A stretch of 51,184 nucleotides of DNA from the IMG/VR virus record IMGVR_UViG_2585427745_000020. One strand, given 5' to 3'. This document shows positions 34,117 through 39,020 of this stretch, one piece after another; within the stretch, counting starts at the first letter, position 1, and the number at the start of each line of letters is the position of its first letter. The notes under the pieces are model-generated. The model was not told the origin of the DNA and made no database searches. It saw only the letters and a list, made by a program, of their open reading frames with translations. Origin of the DNA: a virus (Duplodnaviria; Heunggongvirae; Uroviricota; Caudoviricetes). A program made the translations under genes and the position numbers.

Positions 34117-34443
34117 ATGGATGCACAAACACGCCGCCGCGAACGTCGCGCAGAGAAACAGGCTCAATGGAAAGCAGCAAACCCCCTGTTGGTTGGGGTA
34201 AGCGCAAAACCAGTTAACCGCCCTATTCTCTCGCTGAATCGCAAACCGAAATCACGAGTAGAAAGCGCACTGAATCCGATAGACCTTACGGTGCTGGCTG
34301 AATACCACGAACAGATTGAAAGCAACCTGCAACGTATTGAGCGCAAGAATCAGCGCACATGGTACAGCAAGCCACGCAGTGAAATGGGTGTGACTTGTGT
34401 TGGTCGCCAGAAAATGAAATTAGGCAGCAAACCACTTATTTAA
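34117..34443 (+). CDS. N: Antiterminator N
   Basis: 108 aa from MDAQTRRRERRAEKQAQWKAANPLLVGVSAKPVNRPIL... matching lambda N; RBS AGGAGA at 34105-34110. Confidence 0.9.
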   Translation: MDAQTRRRERRAEKQAQWKAANPLLVGVSAKPVNRPILSLNRKPKSRVESALNPIDLTVLAEYHEQIESNLQRIERKNQRTWYSKPRSEMGVTCVGRQKMKLGSKPLI

Positions 34444-34451
34444 GGTGATAT

Positions 34452-34703
34452 ATGGAGTTTCATGAAAGTGCGATTTATGATTTTCGCGCTAACGCAAATT
34501 CAGTAAAACCACAGCCAATTGCAGTTCTTTTTAAAACAATGGGTGCGTGGGCTGTTTTATGCTTCGCCGCTGATGACACTGACGCAAGAATGGCAATAGG
34601 CCAAGAGATGGAGATGGACCCGACAAACGATGAATTCATAATTTATGGCGCTCCATCTAATTACTTACTTGATACCTGCAACATTTACAACAAGGCTGCC
34701 TGA
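34452..34703 (+). CDS. Hypothetical protein after N (ral position)
   Basis: 83 aa; begins 9 nt after the N stop; no recognised motif. Confidence 0.5.
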   Translation: MEFHESAIYDFRANANSVKPQPIAVLFKTMGAWAVLCFAADDTDARMAIGQEMEMDPTNDEFIIYGAPSNYLLDTCNIYNKAA

Positions 34704-34839
34704 TGGTGGCCTTCATTTTTGGCATAAACAACAGAATAAATACTGCACTGTGTATTCATTCCAACGAGTGAATACACGGAGCAATGTCGCTCGTAACTAA
34801 ACAGGAGCCGACTTGTTCTGATTATTGGAAATCTTCTTT

Positions 34840-34866
34840 GCCCTCCAGTGTGAGGGCATTTTTTTG
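34840..34866 (+). terminator. Rho-independent terminator (tL1-like)
   Basis: Hairpin GCCCTC-CAGTGT-GAGGGC (34840-34857) followed by ATTTTTTT. Confidence 0.6.
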
Positions 34867-34877
34867 ATGGAGGATAT

Positions 34878-35846
34878 ATGAGTGAAGTAACAGATTTAGT
34901 TGTTATTGAAAAAGCAAATGCAATGACTGTATTTCAGTCTGCAGACCAGATTGAAGAAATCCTTCAAAAGGTTGAACGTGAAGTTATGTCCTTTGTGCCT
35001 GATATCACAACGGCAAAGGGCAGAAAGGAGATCGCTTCTCTGGCGTATAAAGTTGCGCAGACGAAAACATATCTCGACGGTCTTGGCAAAGACCTTGTTG
35101 CTGAACTGAAGGAAATTCCAAAGCTAATTGATGCCAACCGCAAGACAGTGCGCGATCGCCTTGATGAACTGAAAGCCAAGGCGCGCCAGCCTCTTACTGA
35201 TTATGAGGAGGAGCAGGCACGGATTAAAGCCGAAGAAGAAGCTAAGGCAGCAGCTGAAGCTCTCGCAAAGCAAATTGAGTCTGACCATGAAATAGCGATT
35301 TTGATGGATCGCGAATTTGACCGCCAAAGAGAAGAGGCAAGACTCAAAGCGGAGCAGGAAAAGCGAGAGCATGAAGAACGCTTAAAAAGAGAAGCTGAAG
35401 AGAAAGCCAGAGCAGAAGCCGAAGCAAAGGCAAAAGCCGAAATTGAAGCAGCAGCAAGGCGAGAAGCAGAAGCTAAGGCCGCAGCGGAACGTGCAGAGCG
35501 TGAACGCATTGAAGCCGAGCAACGAGCACAGCGCGAAGCAAAAGAGGCAGCAGAACGAGCTGAAAGAGAAAAGCAGGCGGCAATTGAAGCAGAACGCCGA
35601 AAAGCACAGGAGGAGGCTGAACGAATCCGGCGCGAGGCTGAAGCAAAAGAGCAAGCCAGAATAGCAGAAGAAAAAAGAATCAAGGAAGAAGAAGAGCGTA
35701 GAGCAAAGGATAAAGCTCACCGGAAAGAAGTAAATAACAAAATACTTGCTGACCTTATCAAGGTTGGTGCATCAGAAGATGTTGCTAAAAATATCATAAC
35801 AGCCATCGTAAAAGGCGAAGTATTCGCAACAAAAATAACCTACTAA
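34878..35846 (+). CDS. Charged coiled-coil protein with extreme Ala/Glu/Lys/Arg low-complexity core
   Basis: 322 aa; strong RBS GGAGGA (34869-34874); globular N-terminus (about 110 aa), about 170 aa of AEAKAKAEIEAAARREAEAKAAAERAERE-type repeats, short C-terminal domain. Confidence 0.6.
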   Translation: MSEVTDLVVIEKANAMTVFQSADQIEEILQKVEREVMSFVPDITTAKGRKEIASLAYKVAQTKTYLDGLGKDLVAELKEIPKLIDANRKTVRDRLDELKAKARQPLTDYEEEQARIKAEEEAKAAAEALAKQIESDHEIAILMDREFDRQREEARLKAEQEKREHEERLKREAEEKARAEAEAKAKAEIEAAARREAEAKAAAERAERERIEAEQRAQREAKEAAERAEREKQAAIEAERRKAQEEAERIRREAEAKEQARIAEEKRIKEEEERRAKDKAHRKEVNNKILADLIKVGASEDVAKNIITAIVKGEVFATKITY

Positions 35847-35870: not shown

Positions 35871-36002
35871 ATGATTTACGCAATCGCGGGAGGCGCTCGC
35901 ATGGGTGCCTTCCAATTAAATGAATCTTTACTTGAACGAATCACCCGTAAATTACGTGACGGATGGAAAAGAGTTGAGGTCTTATTATGCGCAATGAAAT
36001 AG
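35871..36002 (+). CDS. cIII: CIII-like protease inhibitor
   Basis: 43 aa MIYAIAGGARMGAFQLNESLLERITRKLRDGWKRVEVLLCAMK; ESLLERITRKLRDGWKR matches lambda CIII; not in the ORF track. Confidence 0.75.
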   Translation: MIYAIAGGARMGAFQLNESLLERITRKLRDGWKRVEVLLCAMK

Positions 36003-36139
36003 CCATCAATCACCAGATGCTTCGTGCTGCACAGAACAAAGCAGTAATAGCCAGATTTATTGGTGATTCAAAAATGTGGCTTGAAGCAAATAAAGCGATG
36101 AAATCAGCTATCAATCTTCCGTGGTATCGCAGGAAATGA
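35987..36139 (+). CDS. kil: Kil-like host-killing protein
   Basis: 50 aa MRNEIAINHQMLRAAQNKAVIARFIGDSKMWLEANKAMKSAINLPWYRRK; IARFIGDSKMW resembles lambda Kil; overlaps cIII as in lambda. Confidence 0.55.
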   Translation: MRNEIAINHQMLRAAQNKAVIARFIGDSKMWLEANKAMKSAINLPWYRRK

Positions 36140-36294
36140 GTTTTACAGATAACTGGTCAGACGAAGAATTCATTCGTCAGATGAAAGATTTAATCGGTAA
36201 CGAAGGAGATATTCATGTCACTTGCAACCACAGTGAAGGAGAGCAAGTTACAGAGACGCATGTACACGCAGAAAGCTCTCTGGTATCGCCATAA
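36136..36294 (+). CDS. Hypothetical small protein upstream of erf
   Basis: 52 aa MSFTDNWSDEEFIRQMKDLIGNEGDIHVTCNHSEGEQ...; ATGA overlap with kil; speculative. Confidence 0.35.
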   Translation: MSFTDNWSDEEFIRQMKDLIGNEGDIHVTCNHSEGEQVTETHVHAESSLVSP

Positions 36295-36395
36295 TGGCGA
36301 CCGCGAAGGAATGCGGGTATGCCTTAATTTGTCCCGAGTAGAAGTATTAAATCAGCGTTATTTCCTTGGGCCATGTCCATTCTGAGAACAATCAT

Positions 36396-37001
36396 ATGAG
36401 CAAAGAATTTTACGCAAGACTGGCAGCTATTCAGGAGAATCTGAACGCGCCAAAGAATCAGTACAACTCATTCGGTAAATATAAATACAGAAGCTGCGAA
36501 GACATTCTTGAAGGCGTTAAGCCGTTACTGAATGGCCTGTTTTTATCAATCAGCGATGAAGTTGTGTTGATTGGTGATCGGTATTACGTGAAAGCCACGG
36601 CAACTATTACCGATGGCGAAAACAGTCATACGGCAACCGCCCTTGCACGAGAGGAAGAAAGCAAGAAAGGAATGGATTCTGCACAAGTTACGGGAGCCAC
36701 AAGCTCTTATGCACGCAAGTATTGCCTTAATGGTTTGTTCGGCATTGATGATGCGAAAGATGCAGATACCGACGAGCATAAACATCAGCAGAACGCAGCA
36801 GCAAAGCAATCAAAACCATCACCTACACCTGAACAGGTTCTAAAAGCATTCACTGACGCAGCATTGCAGAAAAACACCGTGGAAGAGCTTAAACAGGCGT
36901 TCGCCAAAGCGTGGAAGATGCTCGAAGGCACACCGGAGCAGCACAAAGCGCAGGACGTTTACAACATCAGACGAGACGAATTAGAAGGAGCGGCTGCTTA
37001 A
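36396..37001 (+). CDS. erf: Erf single-strand annealing recombinase
   Basis: 201 aa from MSKEFYARLAAIQENLNAPKNQYNSFGKYKYRSCEDILEGVKPLLNGLFLSI..., near-identical to the P22 Erf N-terminal domain. Confidence 0.9.
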   Translation: MSKEFYARLAAIQENLNAPKNQYNSFGKYKYRSCEDILEGVKPLLNGLFLSISDEVVLIGDRYYVKATATITDGENSHTATALAREEESKKGMDSAQVTGATSSYARKYCLNGLFGIDDAKDADTDEHKHQQNAAAKQSKPSPTPEQVLKAFTDAALQKNTVEELKQAFAKAWKMLEGTPEQHKAQDVYNIRRDELEGAAA

Positions 37002-37384
37002 TGGCACATTCGATTACTGTAAGACTAAACAAGCCCGCAAGAGAGTTTCAGGCCGGGGAAAATATCGGATTCAACATCCGTGCTGGCGTTCAGTATTACG
37101 ATCGCCAGACAAAAAAGAAAGAATGGACAAACTACAGCGCCGTTGTATTTGCCAAGCCGGGAGCGCAAGCGGATTACTACCGTAGTGTTCTTGTTGAAGG
37201 TGGCATTGTAGAAATTACCGGAGAAAACATCAGGGTTGATGTTTATCAGGGGCAAAATGGTCAATCAATCACTCTTGAATTACTGAATGCAAAGATTGGA
37301 TTTGCAACTTCAGGAAACAGCCAACAGCAACAAAGTAACAATCATCAAAATCATCCTGAATACGACGATTCAATTCCCTTCTAA
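37001..37384 (+). CDS. ssb: Phage single-stranded DNA-binding protein
   Basis: 127 aa; TAATG overlap with erf; Q-rich linker and acidic C-terminal tail ending DDSIPF as in SSB. Confidence 0.75.
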   Translation: MAHSITVRLNKPAREFQAGENIGFNIRAGVQYYDRQTKKKEWTNYSAVVFAKPGAQADYYRSVLVEGGIVEITGENIRVDVYQGQNGQSITLELLNAKIGFATSGNSQQQQSNNHQNHPEYDDSIPF

Positions 37385-37711: not shown

Positions 37712-37876
37712 ATGAGAGGACTTGCATACAATCCCGGCATTCTTCCGGCAGAAATGATTATTCGCCAACGCGTAAAGCCAATGCCATCGAGAGAGGAATT
37801 ACTTAAGAGAAATTCTTTTCCATCAGTGAATCAAAACAAATATCTGAATGCGATGTTGCGGAGTGGGAAGAAATGA
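37712..37876 (+). CDS. Hypothetical small protein
   Basis: 54 aa from ATG 37712 with RBS GAGGAA; the upstream part of the track ORF overlaps the previous gene. Confidence 0.35.
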
Positions 37877-38379
37877 AACAAATGTCACTAATTGAGATGG
37901 ATGGATTTCTGAAAGGTAAATACATCCCACGAGATTTAAAGGTTAACGAAACAAACGCTGAATATCTTGTCCGTAAGTTCGGTGAACTTGAATCAAAACT
38001 AGAAACGGCGTTGCGGGAGTGTCGTTCTGCTGGAATCACGATTGATAACCTTGAGGCCAAGTGCGCGGCGCTGGCGGCGGAGAATGCGGGGCTGAAACAT
38101 GCAATGGCTGTAACTCTTGAGCATGTGTCGGTCACGGATGCAGGGCAGGCCGGAGTTGCTGCAATGATTATCAACGATGCTCTGCACCACAGCGAAACCC
38201 CAGCCACCGATGCTTTCCTGGCTGAAGTCCGGGCTAAGGCGTTTGATGACCTTTGCGCGGCGTTCGTTAAGCACGCGTCGGTGTCCGGGCTGGACGATGG
38301 CGACTGCGTTACGGTGAAAGAAGCGACGGACGCCCTGCTGCATTGTGCGGAGCAGCTTCGCAAAGGAGGCAACCAGTGA
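37873..38379 (+). CDS. Hypothetical early-left protein
   Basis: 168 aa; ATGA overlap with the upstream ORF. Confidence 0.5.
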
Positions 38380-39020
38380 GCAAGATTGATTATCAAAAGC
38401 TTCGTGAAATCGCTGAAAAAACAAAAATTGCTGGTGAAGCACCTGTAATGCCTTTCGATCAGCGAATTAATGCGCTTAACGATTTTATGAAGCACTTTTC
38501 GCCAGCTACCGTGCTGGCACTGCTGGATGAGCTGGAAAGAAACCAGCAATACATCAAACGCCGCGACCAGGAGAACGAGGATATTGCGCTAACGGTAGGG
38601 AGGCTTCGCGTTGAGCTGGAAGGCAAAGACAGCAAAATAGCCAATCTTACCGCCGAACGCGATGCTCTTCGTGAAGGTGAGATGGGCGACGCTAGGCATA
38701 GCAACACACGGGCCGCAGCTGATATCTACTTCCAACTGGTCGAGGAGTGCGAAATTCCTGCTGGCGGATCTCTGGTCGAGTACGTTGACGATATGCGCGA
38801 GAAGCTGGAAGCCGCAGAGAAGCGCATTGCAGAGTTAGAAAGTGGTTCTCAGGCACAAAAGTTAGTTGAAGCAATCATTGTTGCGATAGAAAACGAACAG
38901 GAAAGGCTTTTTGATGAAGATTACCTAATGGATTCGAAAGAATGCATTGACGTAATTCGTGAAGAAGTAAAGCGATGGAATGATTCCCGTGCCGCTGGCA
39001 TTCGCATCAAAGGAGAGTGA
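38376..39020 (+). CDS. Ea22/Ead-like early protein
   Basis: 214 aa from GTG 38376 with RBS AAGGAGG (38363-38369); N-terminus [15 protein letters not shown] resembles ead/Ea22-family proteins. Confidence 0.5.
   Translation: MSKIDYQKLREIAEKTKIAGEAPVMPFDQRINALNDFMKHFSPATVLALLDELERNQQYIKRRDQENEDIALTVGRLRVELEGKDSKIANLTAERDALREGEMGDARHSNTRAAADIYFQLVEECEIPAGGSLVEYVDDMREKLEAAEKRIAELESGSQAQKLVEAIIVAIENEQERLFDEDYLMDSKECIDVIREEVKRWNDSRAAGIRIKGE

Follow-up and report, generated by a model that had tools for sequence, protein, structure and literature searches.

ORF322 of a P22-like Escherichia coli prophage, a member of the phage phi80 Agt family linked to annealing-recombinase modules

ORF322 is carried by a P22-like E. 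coli prophage and lies in the window, by which is meant the whole stretch of 51,184 nucleotides that was analysed (Table 1). An earlier note on this DNA had described a 322-residue protein with its own ribosome binding site, behind a terminator and between N and cIII, and the signals found agree with that description. A GGAGG sequence precedes the ATG, and 5' of it stands a terminator-like hairpin (7-bp stem with 5 GC pairs, 6-nt loop) followed by a run of seven T residues; the Sf6 counterpart of this hairpin is annotated tL2A. Two observations speak for the start codon and the reading frame: M1 and L7 are conserved family-wide (in 98% and 92% of 48 diverse homologs), and every length difference among alleles of 98-100% identity is an in-frame indel. 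In a consensus scan the promoter-like sites numbered 3, where 3.9 were expected by chance, and none lay directly 5' of ORF322. The best reading of this setting is that ORF322 is a genuine, N-dependent delayed-early gene of the prophage pL operon.

DNA homology to Sf6, CUS-3, mEp213 and HF4s starts at query positions 309-311, or about 34708-34710 of the window. This is just past the stop codon of the 83-residue ORF that follows N, which lies outside the conserved block. Downstream, the gene order is ORF322-cIII-kil-two small ORFs-erf-ssb-abc2, and in the closest relatives, as in the window, the gap of about 550 nt between ORF322 and erf is taken up by cIII, kil and the two small ORFs. The Abc2 label is drawn from the annotation of syntenic genes, namely Sf6 gene 25 ("RecBC inhibitor; similar to P22 abc2") and an HF4s gene ("anti-RecBCD protein").

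Table 1. Features of the ORF322 region, in window coordinates
Feature	Position	Strand	Evidence or remark
Lambda-type antiterminator N	34117..34443	+	translation contains MDAQTRRRERRAEKQAQWKAAN; antitermination protein N in related phages' annotation
83-aa ORF, phrog_2471, function unassigned	34452..34703	+	phrog_2471 E=1.2e-60; between N and terminator
Intrinsic-terminator-like hairpin and T7 run, tL2A-like	34839..34865	+	hairpin 34839-34858, then TTTTTTT
Shine-Dalgarno GGAGG	34869..34873	+	4 nt 5' of ATG, read from sequence
Agt-family gene (ORF322), 322 aa	34878..35846	+	ATG start, ORF listing of the window; phrog_1376 E=7.8e-110, full length
Conserved N-terminal domain, residues 1-115	34878..35222	+	two short helices and start of long helix (predicted)
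Variable-length charged helix, ER/K single-alpha-helix-like spacer, residues 116-275	35223..35702	+	composition, i+4 pairs
Conserved C-terminal domain, residues 276-322	35703..35843	+	end of long helix, loop, short helix, ordered tail ending I-x-Y (predicted)
cIII	35871..36002	+	Pfam Lambda_CIII E=4e-15
kil	35987..36139	+	Pfam Lambda_Kil E=1.7e-20
Erf single-strand annealing protein, recombination-module core	36396..37001	+	Pfam ERF E=2.1e-44
Phage SSB	37001..37384	+	phrog_44 E=1.3e-28; ends ...DDSIPF
Abc2-like anti-RecBCD ORF, 97 aa	37408..37701	+	label from annotated syntenic genes

Judged by sequence, ORF322 is a full-length member of the Agt family (phrog_1376), which takes in Agt (or Mog) of phi80, gp33 of Sf6 and Orf53 of Pseudomonas phage D3. 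A tblastn alignment to phi80 agt has 40.7% identity over residues 1-155 (E=2e-15), in the reverse direction full-length phi80 Agt finds the window by tblastn with E=1.9e-38, and both end domains of ORF322 are kept in the phi80, JBD44 and Vibrio proteins. Agt of phi80/Lula is equal to ORF322 in length (322 residues), has the same three-part architecture and the same terminal I-x-Y, and is likewise assigned to phrog_1376; both genes lie in a pL early-left operon, 5' of recombination genes. In phi80, agt is directly followed by gamL-recT-exo, whereas the window has cIII, kil and two small ORFs and then erf, ssb and abc2. The phi80/Lula paper of Rotman et al. (J Bacteriol 194:6802), which is cited for Agt, reportedly named the phi80 homolog in 2012. 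Closer to the window, Sf6 gene 33 matches at 100% over the unmasked 60% of ORF322 and has the same neighbours. JBD44 gp65 has both end domains in common with ORF322 and is encoded directly 5' of Erf and an exonuclease, while the Pseudomonas proteins (D3 Orf53 and JBD44 gp65) have an additional insert behind the N-domain and a helix of another length. The family comprises 5,794 clusters at 50% identity (E<=1e-3) and occurs in 504 of 5,426 complete E. coli genomes (9%). The novelty implied in the earlier note is essentially lost with this homology to phi80 Agt, a recombination-region accessory with conserved synteny, which is the kind of relationship that the note itself had named as counting against its proposal.

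The middle of the protein is of low complexity, and the earlier note was right to describe some 170 residues of Ala/Glu/Lys/Arg flanked by small N- and C-terminal domains: residues 111-280 contain 29% E, 26% A, 16% R and 11% K (82% together), 21-residue windows with at least 80% AEKRQ cover residues 107-285, and both end domains are conserved across homologs. The spurious antisense ORFs that it mentioned are also present. Four antisense ORFs (57-160 aa) and one plus-strand ORF in an alternative frame (73 aa) overlap ORF322, and they are artefacts of low complexity. The repetitive DNA to which they had been ascribed needs a qualification: TRF reported just a degenerate 6-nt AGAAGC array (x14, 63% matches) and a 15-nt repeat (x2), and the DNA is of low complexity instead of being a true tandem repeat.

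Hydrophobic residues make up about 6% of the charged helix, which shows no heptad pattern; between residues 150 and 280, in any register, no more than 11% of the a/d positions are hydrophobic. Pairs of opposite charge at i and i+4 are strongly enriched (23 E->K/R and 29 K/R->E, against 12 +/- 2.5 in shuffled sequences), the salt-bridge signature of a single alpha-helix. "Coiled-coil", the term used in the earlier note, is probably the wrong label for ORF322 because the heptad hydrophobic pattern is absent. The segment looks instead like an ER/K single alpha-helix (SAH), and an Ala-rich dimer may be an alternative to a monomeric SAH. It shares an E/K/R/A-rich composition, few hydrophobic residues and the i->i+4 enrichment of opposite charges with ER/K SAH domains (e.g., those of myosin VI/X and caldesmon) and with TolA domain II. 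The SAH is a structural class, and the likeness implies no homologous family. Across 48 homologs the middle region ranges from 90 to 244 residues, near-identical alleles differ by in-frame indels within the charged helix, mosaics of N- and C-domains occur, and natural variants of 245-333 residues exist; helix length that varies so freely is expected of a spacer.

The two end domains can be aligned in all 48 diverse members, and their hallmark residues are conserved in 81-100%. The N-domain has invariant S54, K63 and P105 and a PLTxWE motif, and is 41-61% identical to the phi80, JBD44 and Vibrio homologs; conservation peaks at residues 42-115, a near-neutral stretch, with a helical periodicity of 3.6-3.7 (p~0.009). 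The C-domain is conserved in all four distant homologs as well as across the 48 members, with K279, H281, L293, G297, E300, A303, I310, V315, I320 and Y322 invariant in the homolog alignment. AF2 models of the N-domain (pLDDT 86; helices 12-20, 22-37 and 46-149) and of the C-domain (pLDDT 90) predict a long helix for residues 46-149 and again for 263-295, and for the part in between (150-262) ER/K composition is what points to helix. If continuous, this helix would be about 250 residues long, and the prediction for ORF322 as a whole is an extended rod that is helical almost throughout. The domain searches on the end segments that the earlier note had suggested returned no known family: a Pfam scan of the whole protein, both end domains and the 48 diverse homologs, together with a permissive scan, matched none, nor did ORF322 match NCBIfam, and a PDB sequence search with the N-domain profile and the C-domain found no relative. 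Neither end domain gave an informative fold match. An SMC-Rad50-SbcC-like protein was considered and rejected, as ORF322 lacks a heptad core, a Walker A motif (GxxxxGK[ST]) and any Pfam match. Comparison by hhalign with K-12 RecE, using both full-length and N-domain profiles, gave a probability of 0.1%, and the idea that Agt is a detached N-terminal (non-nuclease) region of RecE, a "RecE-2", was likewise set aside.

Synteny was compared at 48 non-redundant Agt loci from Gamma-, Beta- and Alphaproteobacteria, counting genes on the same strand within flanks of about 6 kb. An annealing recombinase (Erf, RecT or Bet-like) is present at 39 or more of these loci (Erf at 20 (+1), RecT at 17, Bet-like at 1); of the 48 loci, 23 have a YqaJ exonuclease, 12 a RecE-like PDDEXK nuclease and 13 an SSB gene. 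Some recombination gene occurs at 44 loci, and at 47 when Cas4-type, ExoV-like and HNH nucleases are added; at 32 the immediate same-strand neighbour of the Agt gene belongs to the module. The family is bound to annealing-recombinase modules as tightly as are exonuclease and SSB genes. Outside the enteric phages the Agt gene sits inside the recombination module, not beside N, and at most of these loci neither cIII nor kil lies between it and the recombinase; the linkage in the window and its closest relatives is looser than in most other lineages. An HMM built from the Abc2-like ORF of the window found homologs 3' of Agt at 41 of 67 close loci. In early operons that are compact, part of the synteny may stem from gene order and not from function. 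With this comparison, and with a phi80 homolog placed 5' of gamL-recT-exo, the earlier suggestion of a recombination-associated accessory gene before erf is supported.

A comparable position is known from Firmicutes phages, in which DUF1351 (PF07083) genes lie directly beside recT/redB/erf/sak4 (PMC8093625). DUF1351 (phrog_674) resembles the Agt family in its recombinase-adjacent position, in being mostly helical and K/E-rich and in its length of about 230-270 residues; one 24-residue motif aligns at the equivalent position, and an Agt-family member, P0241, bears the UniRef name "DUF1351". It differs in having neither the ER/K spacer nor the I-x-Y C-domain, and it forms a PHROG distinct from phrog_1376. 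Neither the window protein nor any of the 48 diverse members matched Pfam DUF1351 at gathering score, nor did seven further homologs, P0241 among them, in a permissive scan (E<=10); gp22 of IME-EFm5, the positive control, matched with E=4.6e-18, and the lactococcal phages bIL286 and bIL309 had no DUF1351. Comparison of the two families by hhalign gave a probability of 1.4-7.4% over 24 columns, with a DUF1351 profile that is shallow (Neff 1.6). The likeness is best treated as a positional analogy, short of demonstrated homology.

Several roles can be weighed against this background. In the phi80 record (NC_021190), agt (gp39) is glossed "anti-toxin for Gam; Mog (modifier of Gam)", and the entry for gamL reads "toxic without Mog"; the Agt activity referred to here, the countering of GamL toxicity, is exclusively that of this GenBank annotation by the phi80 authors. 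By extension ORF322, which lies directly 5' of cIII and kil and co-occurs with Abc2, might be a dedicated antidote for one of these toxic early proteins (Abc2, Kil or cIII), as phi80 Agt is for GamL. We consider this unlikely. The window contains no GamL homolog (best tblastn E=0.9), so that the only activity reported for phi80 Agt has no obvious substrate here. GamL accompanies Agt at just 2 of the 48 diverse loci and 4 of the 67 close loci, and of 73 GamL loci 30 have Agt and 43 do not, which rules out an obligate GamL-Agt pairing in both directions. Because GamL is rare at Agt loci and is often found without Agt, "Gam antitoxin" cannot be the general role of the family. Nor does a partner-specific target fit well with an N-domain that is conserved across modules whose proteins are otherwise unrelated, or Kil and cIII with their absence between Agt and recombinase at most non-enteric loci. 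Also improbable is an inhibitor of a host nuclease or protector of DNA ends, analogous to Gam or Mu Gam and directed at a target other than RecBCD (e.g., SbcCD). Its appeal is positional: in Firmicutes phages the slot beside erf/recT/sak4 alternately holds Mu-Gam-like, DUF2483, DUF1351 and gp157-like genes, from which an analogous function was inferred (PMC8093625), and the Agt family fills the equivalent slot in Proteobacteria. Yet the end domains are near-neutral, with net charges of -2 (N) and +3 (C), which speaks little for DNA binding. Fold comparison revealed no likeness to Gam, Ku or any inhibitor, and anti-RecBCD genes often co-occur with Agt (Abc2 and GamL, at the loci counted above), which means that Agt is not their replacement. 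The family also occurs in host lineages of both the RecBCD and the AddAB type, as these lineages are generally known.

In lambda and P22 the interval between N and cIII holds ral, sieB and gene 17, and the earlier note, pointing to these exclusion or anti-restriction genes, had left open a role in exclusion or host takeover. A superinfection-exclusion, anti-restriction or other defence or counter-defence moron is very unlikely, the N-cIII position being all that favours it, with ral just 5' of the Agt-family gene in Sf6 and HK544. PADLOC matched neither ORF322 in full length nor its N-domain nor the distant homologs scanned (its sole match, to a 61-residue C-terminal fragment at E=0.0067, is at chance level), ORF322 has no transmembrane segment, and promoter-like sites are no more frequent than chance. 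Expression from a repressed prophage is unlikely because the gene stands behind a terminator in an N-dependent operon, and the Agt genes of non-enteric phages are embedded in the recombination module away from N. Practically no credence is due to a TolA-like cell-envelope protein, the identity given in product names from NCBI and Pharokka. Hundreds of database entries bear the name "cell envelope biogenesis protein TolA", and the composition is like that of TolA domain II, but the likeness is confined to the low-complexity helix. There is no N-terminal anchor (the maximal Kyte-Doolittle value in a 19-residue window is 1.03, at residue 293), no TolA domain of Pfam or NCBIfam is matched, and the context is a phage early operon; with domains I and III absent, TolA identity is effectively refuted.

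The reading that we favour, with some reserve, is that ORF322 is a delayed-early, N-dependent gene whose product serves the phage single-strand-annealing recombination module as an accessory or adaptor. Its homology, its architecture and its synteny with Erf/RecT/Bet, exonuclease and SSB genes are observed, and from them we infer the role of adaptor or tether. An N-terminal helical head of about 115 residues would run into the long helix, with the charged SAH-like spacer in mid-helix and a C-terminal knob of about 45 residues at the far end. Architecture and conservation suggest a two-ended molecule, in which the N-terminal face and the C-terminal knob may each bind a partner, and a partner that would be common to modules with differing recombinases and nucleases. 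Because the partner would be common to such differing modules, the recombinase itself is less likely to fill this place than is a DNA intermediate or a conserved factor of the host. Contacts through both ends could tune or restrain the host-directed activities of the module, and neutralisation of GamL toxicity in phi80 could be a special case of the adaptor role. Because this prophage is without GamL, ORF322 must act with the Erf/SSB/Abc2 set or on a host target. A broader proposal is offered tentatively, as one that may well not hold: the Agt family would be a further part, widespread and so far unrecognised, of the single-strand-annealing recombination systems of proteobacterial phages, a single-helix tether of 13-37 nm that uses its conserved ends to connect the Erf/RecT/Bet-exonuclease-SSB machinery with either a DNA intermediate or a target that is conserved in the host, and the Gam-antitoxin activity in phi80 would be a lineage-specific side effect.

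ORF322 itself is ordinary, in that the whole of its unmasked sequence has had a match in GenBank since Sf6 was sequenced. What merits some attention is the state of knowledge of the family. It is large (about 5,800 clusters) and has no Pfam or NCBIfam model; the name "TolA / cell envelope biogenesis protein" carried by thousands of entries is a low-complexity artefact, and the sole functional label in circulation, "Gam antitoxin", fails as a family-wide role. No functional study was found in the literature on Agt/GamL or on the gene under the TolA name, and the family is absent from the main text of the Genome Research 2025 survey of lambdoid Rec modules. Recombineering rests on phage single-strand annealing protein systems, and an accessory factor of theirs that has escaped notice is a lead that can be tested at little cost; if the tether reading is true, Agt-family proteins could alter the performance of recombinases transplanted for recombineering.

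ORF322, the 322-codon gene studied here, is a real gene of the known but barely characterised Agt family. Its limits are exactly those that an earlier note had read from the DNA alone, and it lies in an early-left operon that runs from left to right on the + strand (see the table). The site in Sf6 homologous to the hairpin ahead of ORF322 is annotated as terminator tL2A. Another terminator-like hairpin (34692-34713) overlaps the stop codon of the 83-aa ORF, which is kept in mEp234 and HK633 and has other genes in its place in Sf6 and HF4s. One of the small ORFs between kil and erf, of 57 aa, matches phrog_2123, labeled "recombinase" in PHROGs, although a protein of this size is much too short for that activity; the pair corresponds to Sf6 genes 29/30 and HK97 gp42/42.1 and may be equivalent to the Arf-type accessory function of P22. 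Downstream of abc2, at 37873-39020, are two more helix-rich acidic ORFs (168 and 225 aa), in a region where related phages label genes "ead/Ea22-like family protein". The spurious antisense ORFs noticed earlier over ORF322 are present and are compositional artefacts; the DNA described as repetitive is of low complexity, without true tandem repeats.

Features around ORF322
Feature	Position	Strand	Remarks
cI-type repressor	upstream of ORF322
lambda-type N	34117-34443	+	upstream of ORF322
83-aa ORF	34452-34703	+	phrog_2471 (no assigned function); between N and terminator
terminator-like hairpin	34839-34858	+	7-bp GC-rich stem, then TTTTTTT
Shine-Dalgarno GGAGG	34869-34873	+	4 nt 5' of ORF322 ATG
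ORF322	34878..35846	+	322 aa, ATG start
cIII	downstream of ORF322	+	Pfam E=4e-15
kil	downstream of cIII	+	Pfam E=1.7e-20
two overlapping small ORFs	36121-36385		between kil and erf
erf	downstream of small ORFs	+	Pfam E=2.1e-44
SSB	downstream of erf	+	protein ends DDSIPF
Abc2-like ORF, 97 aa	downstream of SSB	+	label from annotated syntenic genes in Sf6, HF4s

Taken whole, the window is a P22-like E. coli prophage of mosaic make-up, with a virion half resembling CUS-3, Kapi1 and phiv205-1 and an early region resembling HK633 and HK022. From ~34708 through erf the DNA is 96-98% identical in Sf6, CUS-3, mEp213, mEp234, HK633, IME10, HF4s and many Stx1a phages. Because homology to Sf6, CUS-3, mEp213, HF4s and N7 starts abruptly at ~34708-34710, just past the 83-aa ORF stop (within 34704-34877), and Sf6 is annotated at the equivalent boundary with mosaic "boundary sequence bsq4", ORF322-cIII-kil-erf appears to be exchanged as a single unit, with differing cargo ahead of it (ral, a TM protein, orf83). 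Phage mEp234 (locus L002, PV340539) is an example of moron traffic around this block: a hicA-hicB-hicC toxin-antitoxin-chaperone cassette (485-1615) separates cI from N, and the region is broken by an IS element just after erf.

The ORF322 protein is 100% identical to that of Sf6 gene 33 over the unmasked 60% and is covered end to end by phrog_1376 (E=7.8e-110), a PHROG of unknown function; no Pfam family matches it. One phage record, that of HF4s, labels its own copy "similar to phage phi80 Agt; Gam antitoxin". The phi80 agt product and the N-terminal 155 residues of ORF322 share 41% identity (tblastn), and the reciprocal search of the window with phi80 Agt gave E=1.9e-38. In phi80 the order is agt, gamL, then recT and exo; in RefSeq, agt is annotated "anti-toxin for Gam; Mog (modifier of Gam)" and gamL "gam-like host nuclease inhibitor; toxic without Mog". 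The primary paper on phi80 Agt is that of Rotman et al. (2012), and the anti-GamL activity is reported here second-hand, from the RefSeq annotation. The ORF322 allele type occurs in ~9% of complete E. coli genomes (504/5,426), and the family comprises ~5,800 clusters at 50% identity, with neither a Pfam nor an NCBIfam model. Members also appear in assemblies labeled Actinomycetes, Coriobacteriia, Clostridia and Woesearchaeota MAGs, Rhizopus arrhizus and "Leptolyngbya phage" (loci L087, L109, L125, L134, L137; proteins P0205, P0345); the Actinomycetes-labeled one, on a 3.9-kb contig, has an N-domain 100% identical to that of E. coli. Mis-binning of, or contamination with, proteobacterial phage DNA is the likeliest explanation, in preference to true host range.

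An alignment of four proteins (phi80 Agt, Pseudomonas JBD44 gp65, a homolog from a Vibrio phage and that of the window) defines a conserved N-domain of ~115 residues (41-61% identity), a charged region of variable length, and a conserved C-domain of ~45 residues that ends in I-x-Y. The small terminal domains flanking a low-complexity middle, as the earlier note had them, recur in all 48 non-redundant homologs from Gamma-, Beta- and Alphaproteobacteria, with middles of 90-244 residues. Among E. coli alleles with 98-100% identity in the rest of the protein (245-333 aa in total), in-frame deletions of 13-77 residues or an 11-residue duplication all fall in the middle, and N/C-domain mosaics exist (P0115, P0117); the middle therefore behaves like a spacer. 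Its helix-coding DNA (35223-35702) is a hotspot both for in-frame indels (P0003-P0020, P0100, P0115, P0117) and for recombination, by which N- and C-domain types are shuffled (P0115, P0117).

Glu, Ala, Arg and Lys make up 82% of residues 111-280, and only ~6% of the middle is strongly hydrophobic. The "coiled-coil" of the earlier note is probably the wrong label: a/d hydrophobics are at most 11% in every heptad register, and i->i+4 opposite-charge pairs (23 and 29, against 12 +/- 2.5 in shuffled sequence) are about twofold enriched, a pattern characteristic of ER/K single alpha-helices and not of classical coiled coils. For residues 1-150, AlphaFold2 (alignment of 72 sequences, pLDDT 86) predicts short helices at 12-20 and 22-37 and then an unbroken helix at 46-149; in its model of residues 262-322 (pLDDT 90) the long helix continues to ~295 and gives way to a loop, then to a short helix at 300-311 and lastly to an extended, ordered tail. 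If continuous across 150-262, between the modeled segments, the helix would span ~250 residues, or ~37 nm at 1.5 A per residue. The predicted shape is a long, helical rod whose two ends are conserved and whose spacer tolerates changes in length. The peak of conservation, at residues 42-115, shows alpha-helical periodicity (p ~0.009) and a near-neutral net charge, which suits a protein-binding face better than a basic DNA-binding surface. Fold searches with the N- and C-terminal domains gave no informative match for either.

Across Proteobacteria, Agt-family genes sit within phage modules for single-strand-annealing recombination. An N-domain profile search of viral and genome collections yielded 160 loci, from which 48 full-length representatives were kept (<85% N-domain identity, flanks of 2.5 kb or more on both sides). 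Same-strand neighbors, clustered and named with Pfam and PHROGs, included YqaJ/lambda-Exo-type exonuclease, Erf, RecT (three clusters), SSB, RecE-like PDDEXK nuclease and RdgC. HMM searches of all flank ORFs found Erf in 20 of the 48 loci (plus one divergent Erf), RecT in 17, a Bet-like protein in one, YqaJ exonuclease in 23, RecE-like PDDEXK in 12, SSB in 13 and RdgC in four. An annealing recombinase is present in at least 39/48 and at least one of these genes in 44/48, which supports the recombination-associated role first suggested for ORF322; three further loci carry a Cas4-type, ExoV-like or HNH nuclease. A module gene directly abuts the Agt gene in 32/48, the exception being enteric lineages, the window included, where small genes (cIII, kil) are inserted. 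RdgC lies at the distal end of modules, ~2-3 kb downstream, in Aeromonas, Chitinilyticum and Bordetella-group prophages (L102, L114, L121, L145). The association persists whichever recombinase or nuclease family occupies the module and therefore points away from partner-specific contact with the recombinase. In Firmicutes phages, DUF1351 often directly adjoins recT, redB, erf or sak4, in a slot shared with Mu-Gam-like genes (PMC8093625). With IME-EFm5 gp22 as a genuine DUF1351 protein (E=4.6e-18), profile-profile comparison with the Agt family gave only 1-7% probability over one 24-residue motif, and the two are separate PHROGs of differing architectures; the likeness is of position, not demonstrated homology. 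The RecE N-terminal region shows no similarity (probability 0.1%).

By analogy with the phi80 annotation, the ORF322 protein could be a dedicated antidote for another early protein, which we regard as unlikely. A search of the window for GamL found no homolog (best E=0.9), and GamL occurs in only 2/48 diverse and 4/67 close Agt loci. Among 73 independently retrieved GamL loci with enough upstream sequence, Agt lies upstream in only 30, and unrelated small ORFs fill the slot in the others. "Gam antitoxin" does not generalise to the family and is lineage-specific at best. That the protein itself inhibits a nuclease or protects DNA ends is similarly doubtful: Abc2 accompanies Agt-family genes in 41/67 close loci, so Agt is not simply an alternative anti-RecBCD function.

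An exclusion or defense gene, the alternative left open earlier, is very improbable, as PADLOC gives no match, promoter-like sites are at chance level, and the gene sits behind a terminator within an N-dependent operon. Database names run from "hypothetical" and "coiled-coil domain-containing" to, most often, "cell envelope biogenesis protein TolA"; this last is wrong, and a TolA-like protein deserves practically no credence, since the protein lacks a membrane anchor (hydropathy peaks at 1.03) and matches no TolA domain. An SMC/Rad50-like identity was rejected on the lack of a Walker A motif and heptad core.

An accessory or adaptor role, taken as a whole, is the reading we consider probable; any specific partner is credited far less. 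Expression would be delayed-early and N-dependent, and the protein may work as an adaptor or tether that makes contact at both ends, with partners that recur across otherwise dissimilar modules and would be a conserved host factor or DNA intermediate. It could thereby tune or restrain host-directed activities of the recombination module, with suppression of GamL toxicity in phi80 as one manifestation. Since the barely characterised family was already known, the specific finding is of modest interest. A recent survey of lambdoid Rec modules does not discuss the family. Of some use are the corrections to the names "TolA" and "Gam antitoxin", the recognition of a large family lacking a Pfam or NCBIfam model, and its companionship with recombinases: the Agt family appears to be a regular companion of those used for recombineering.
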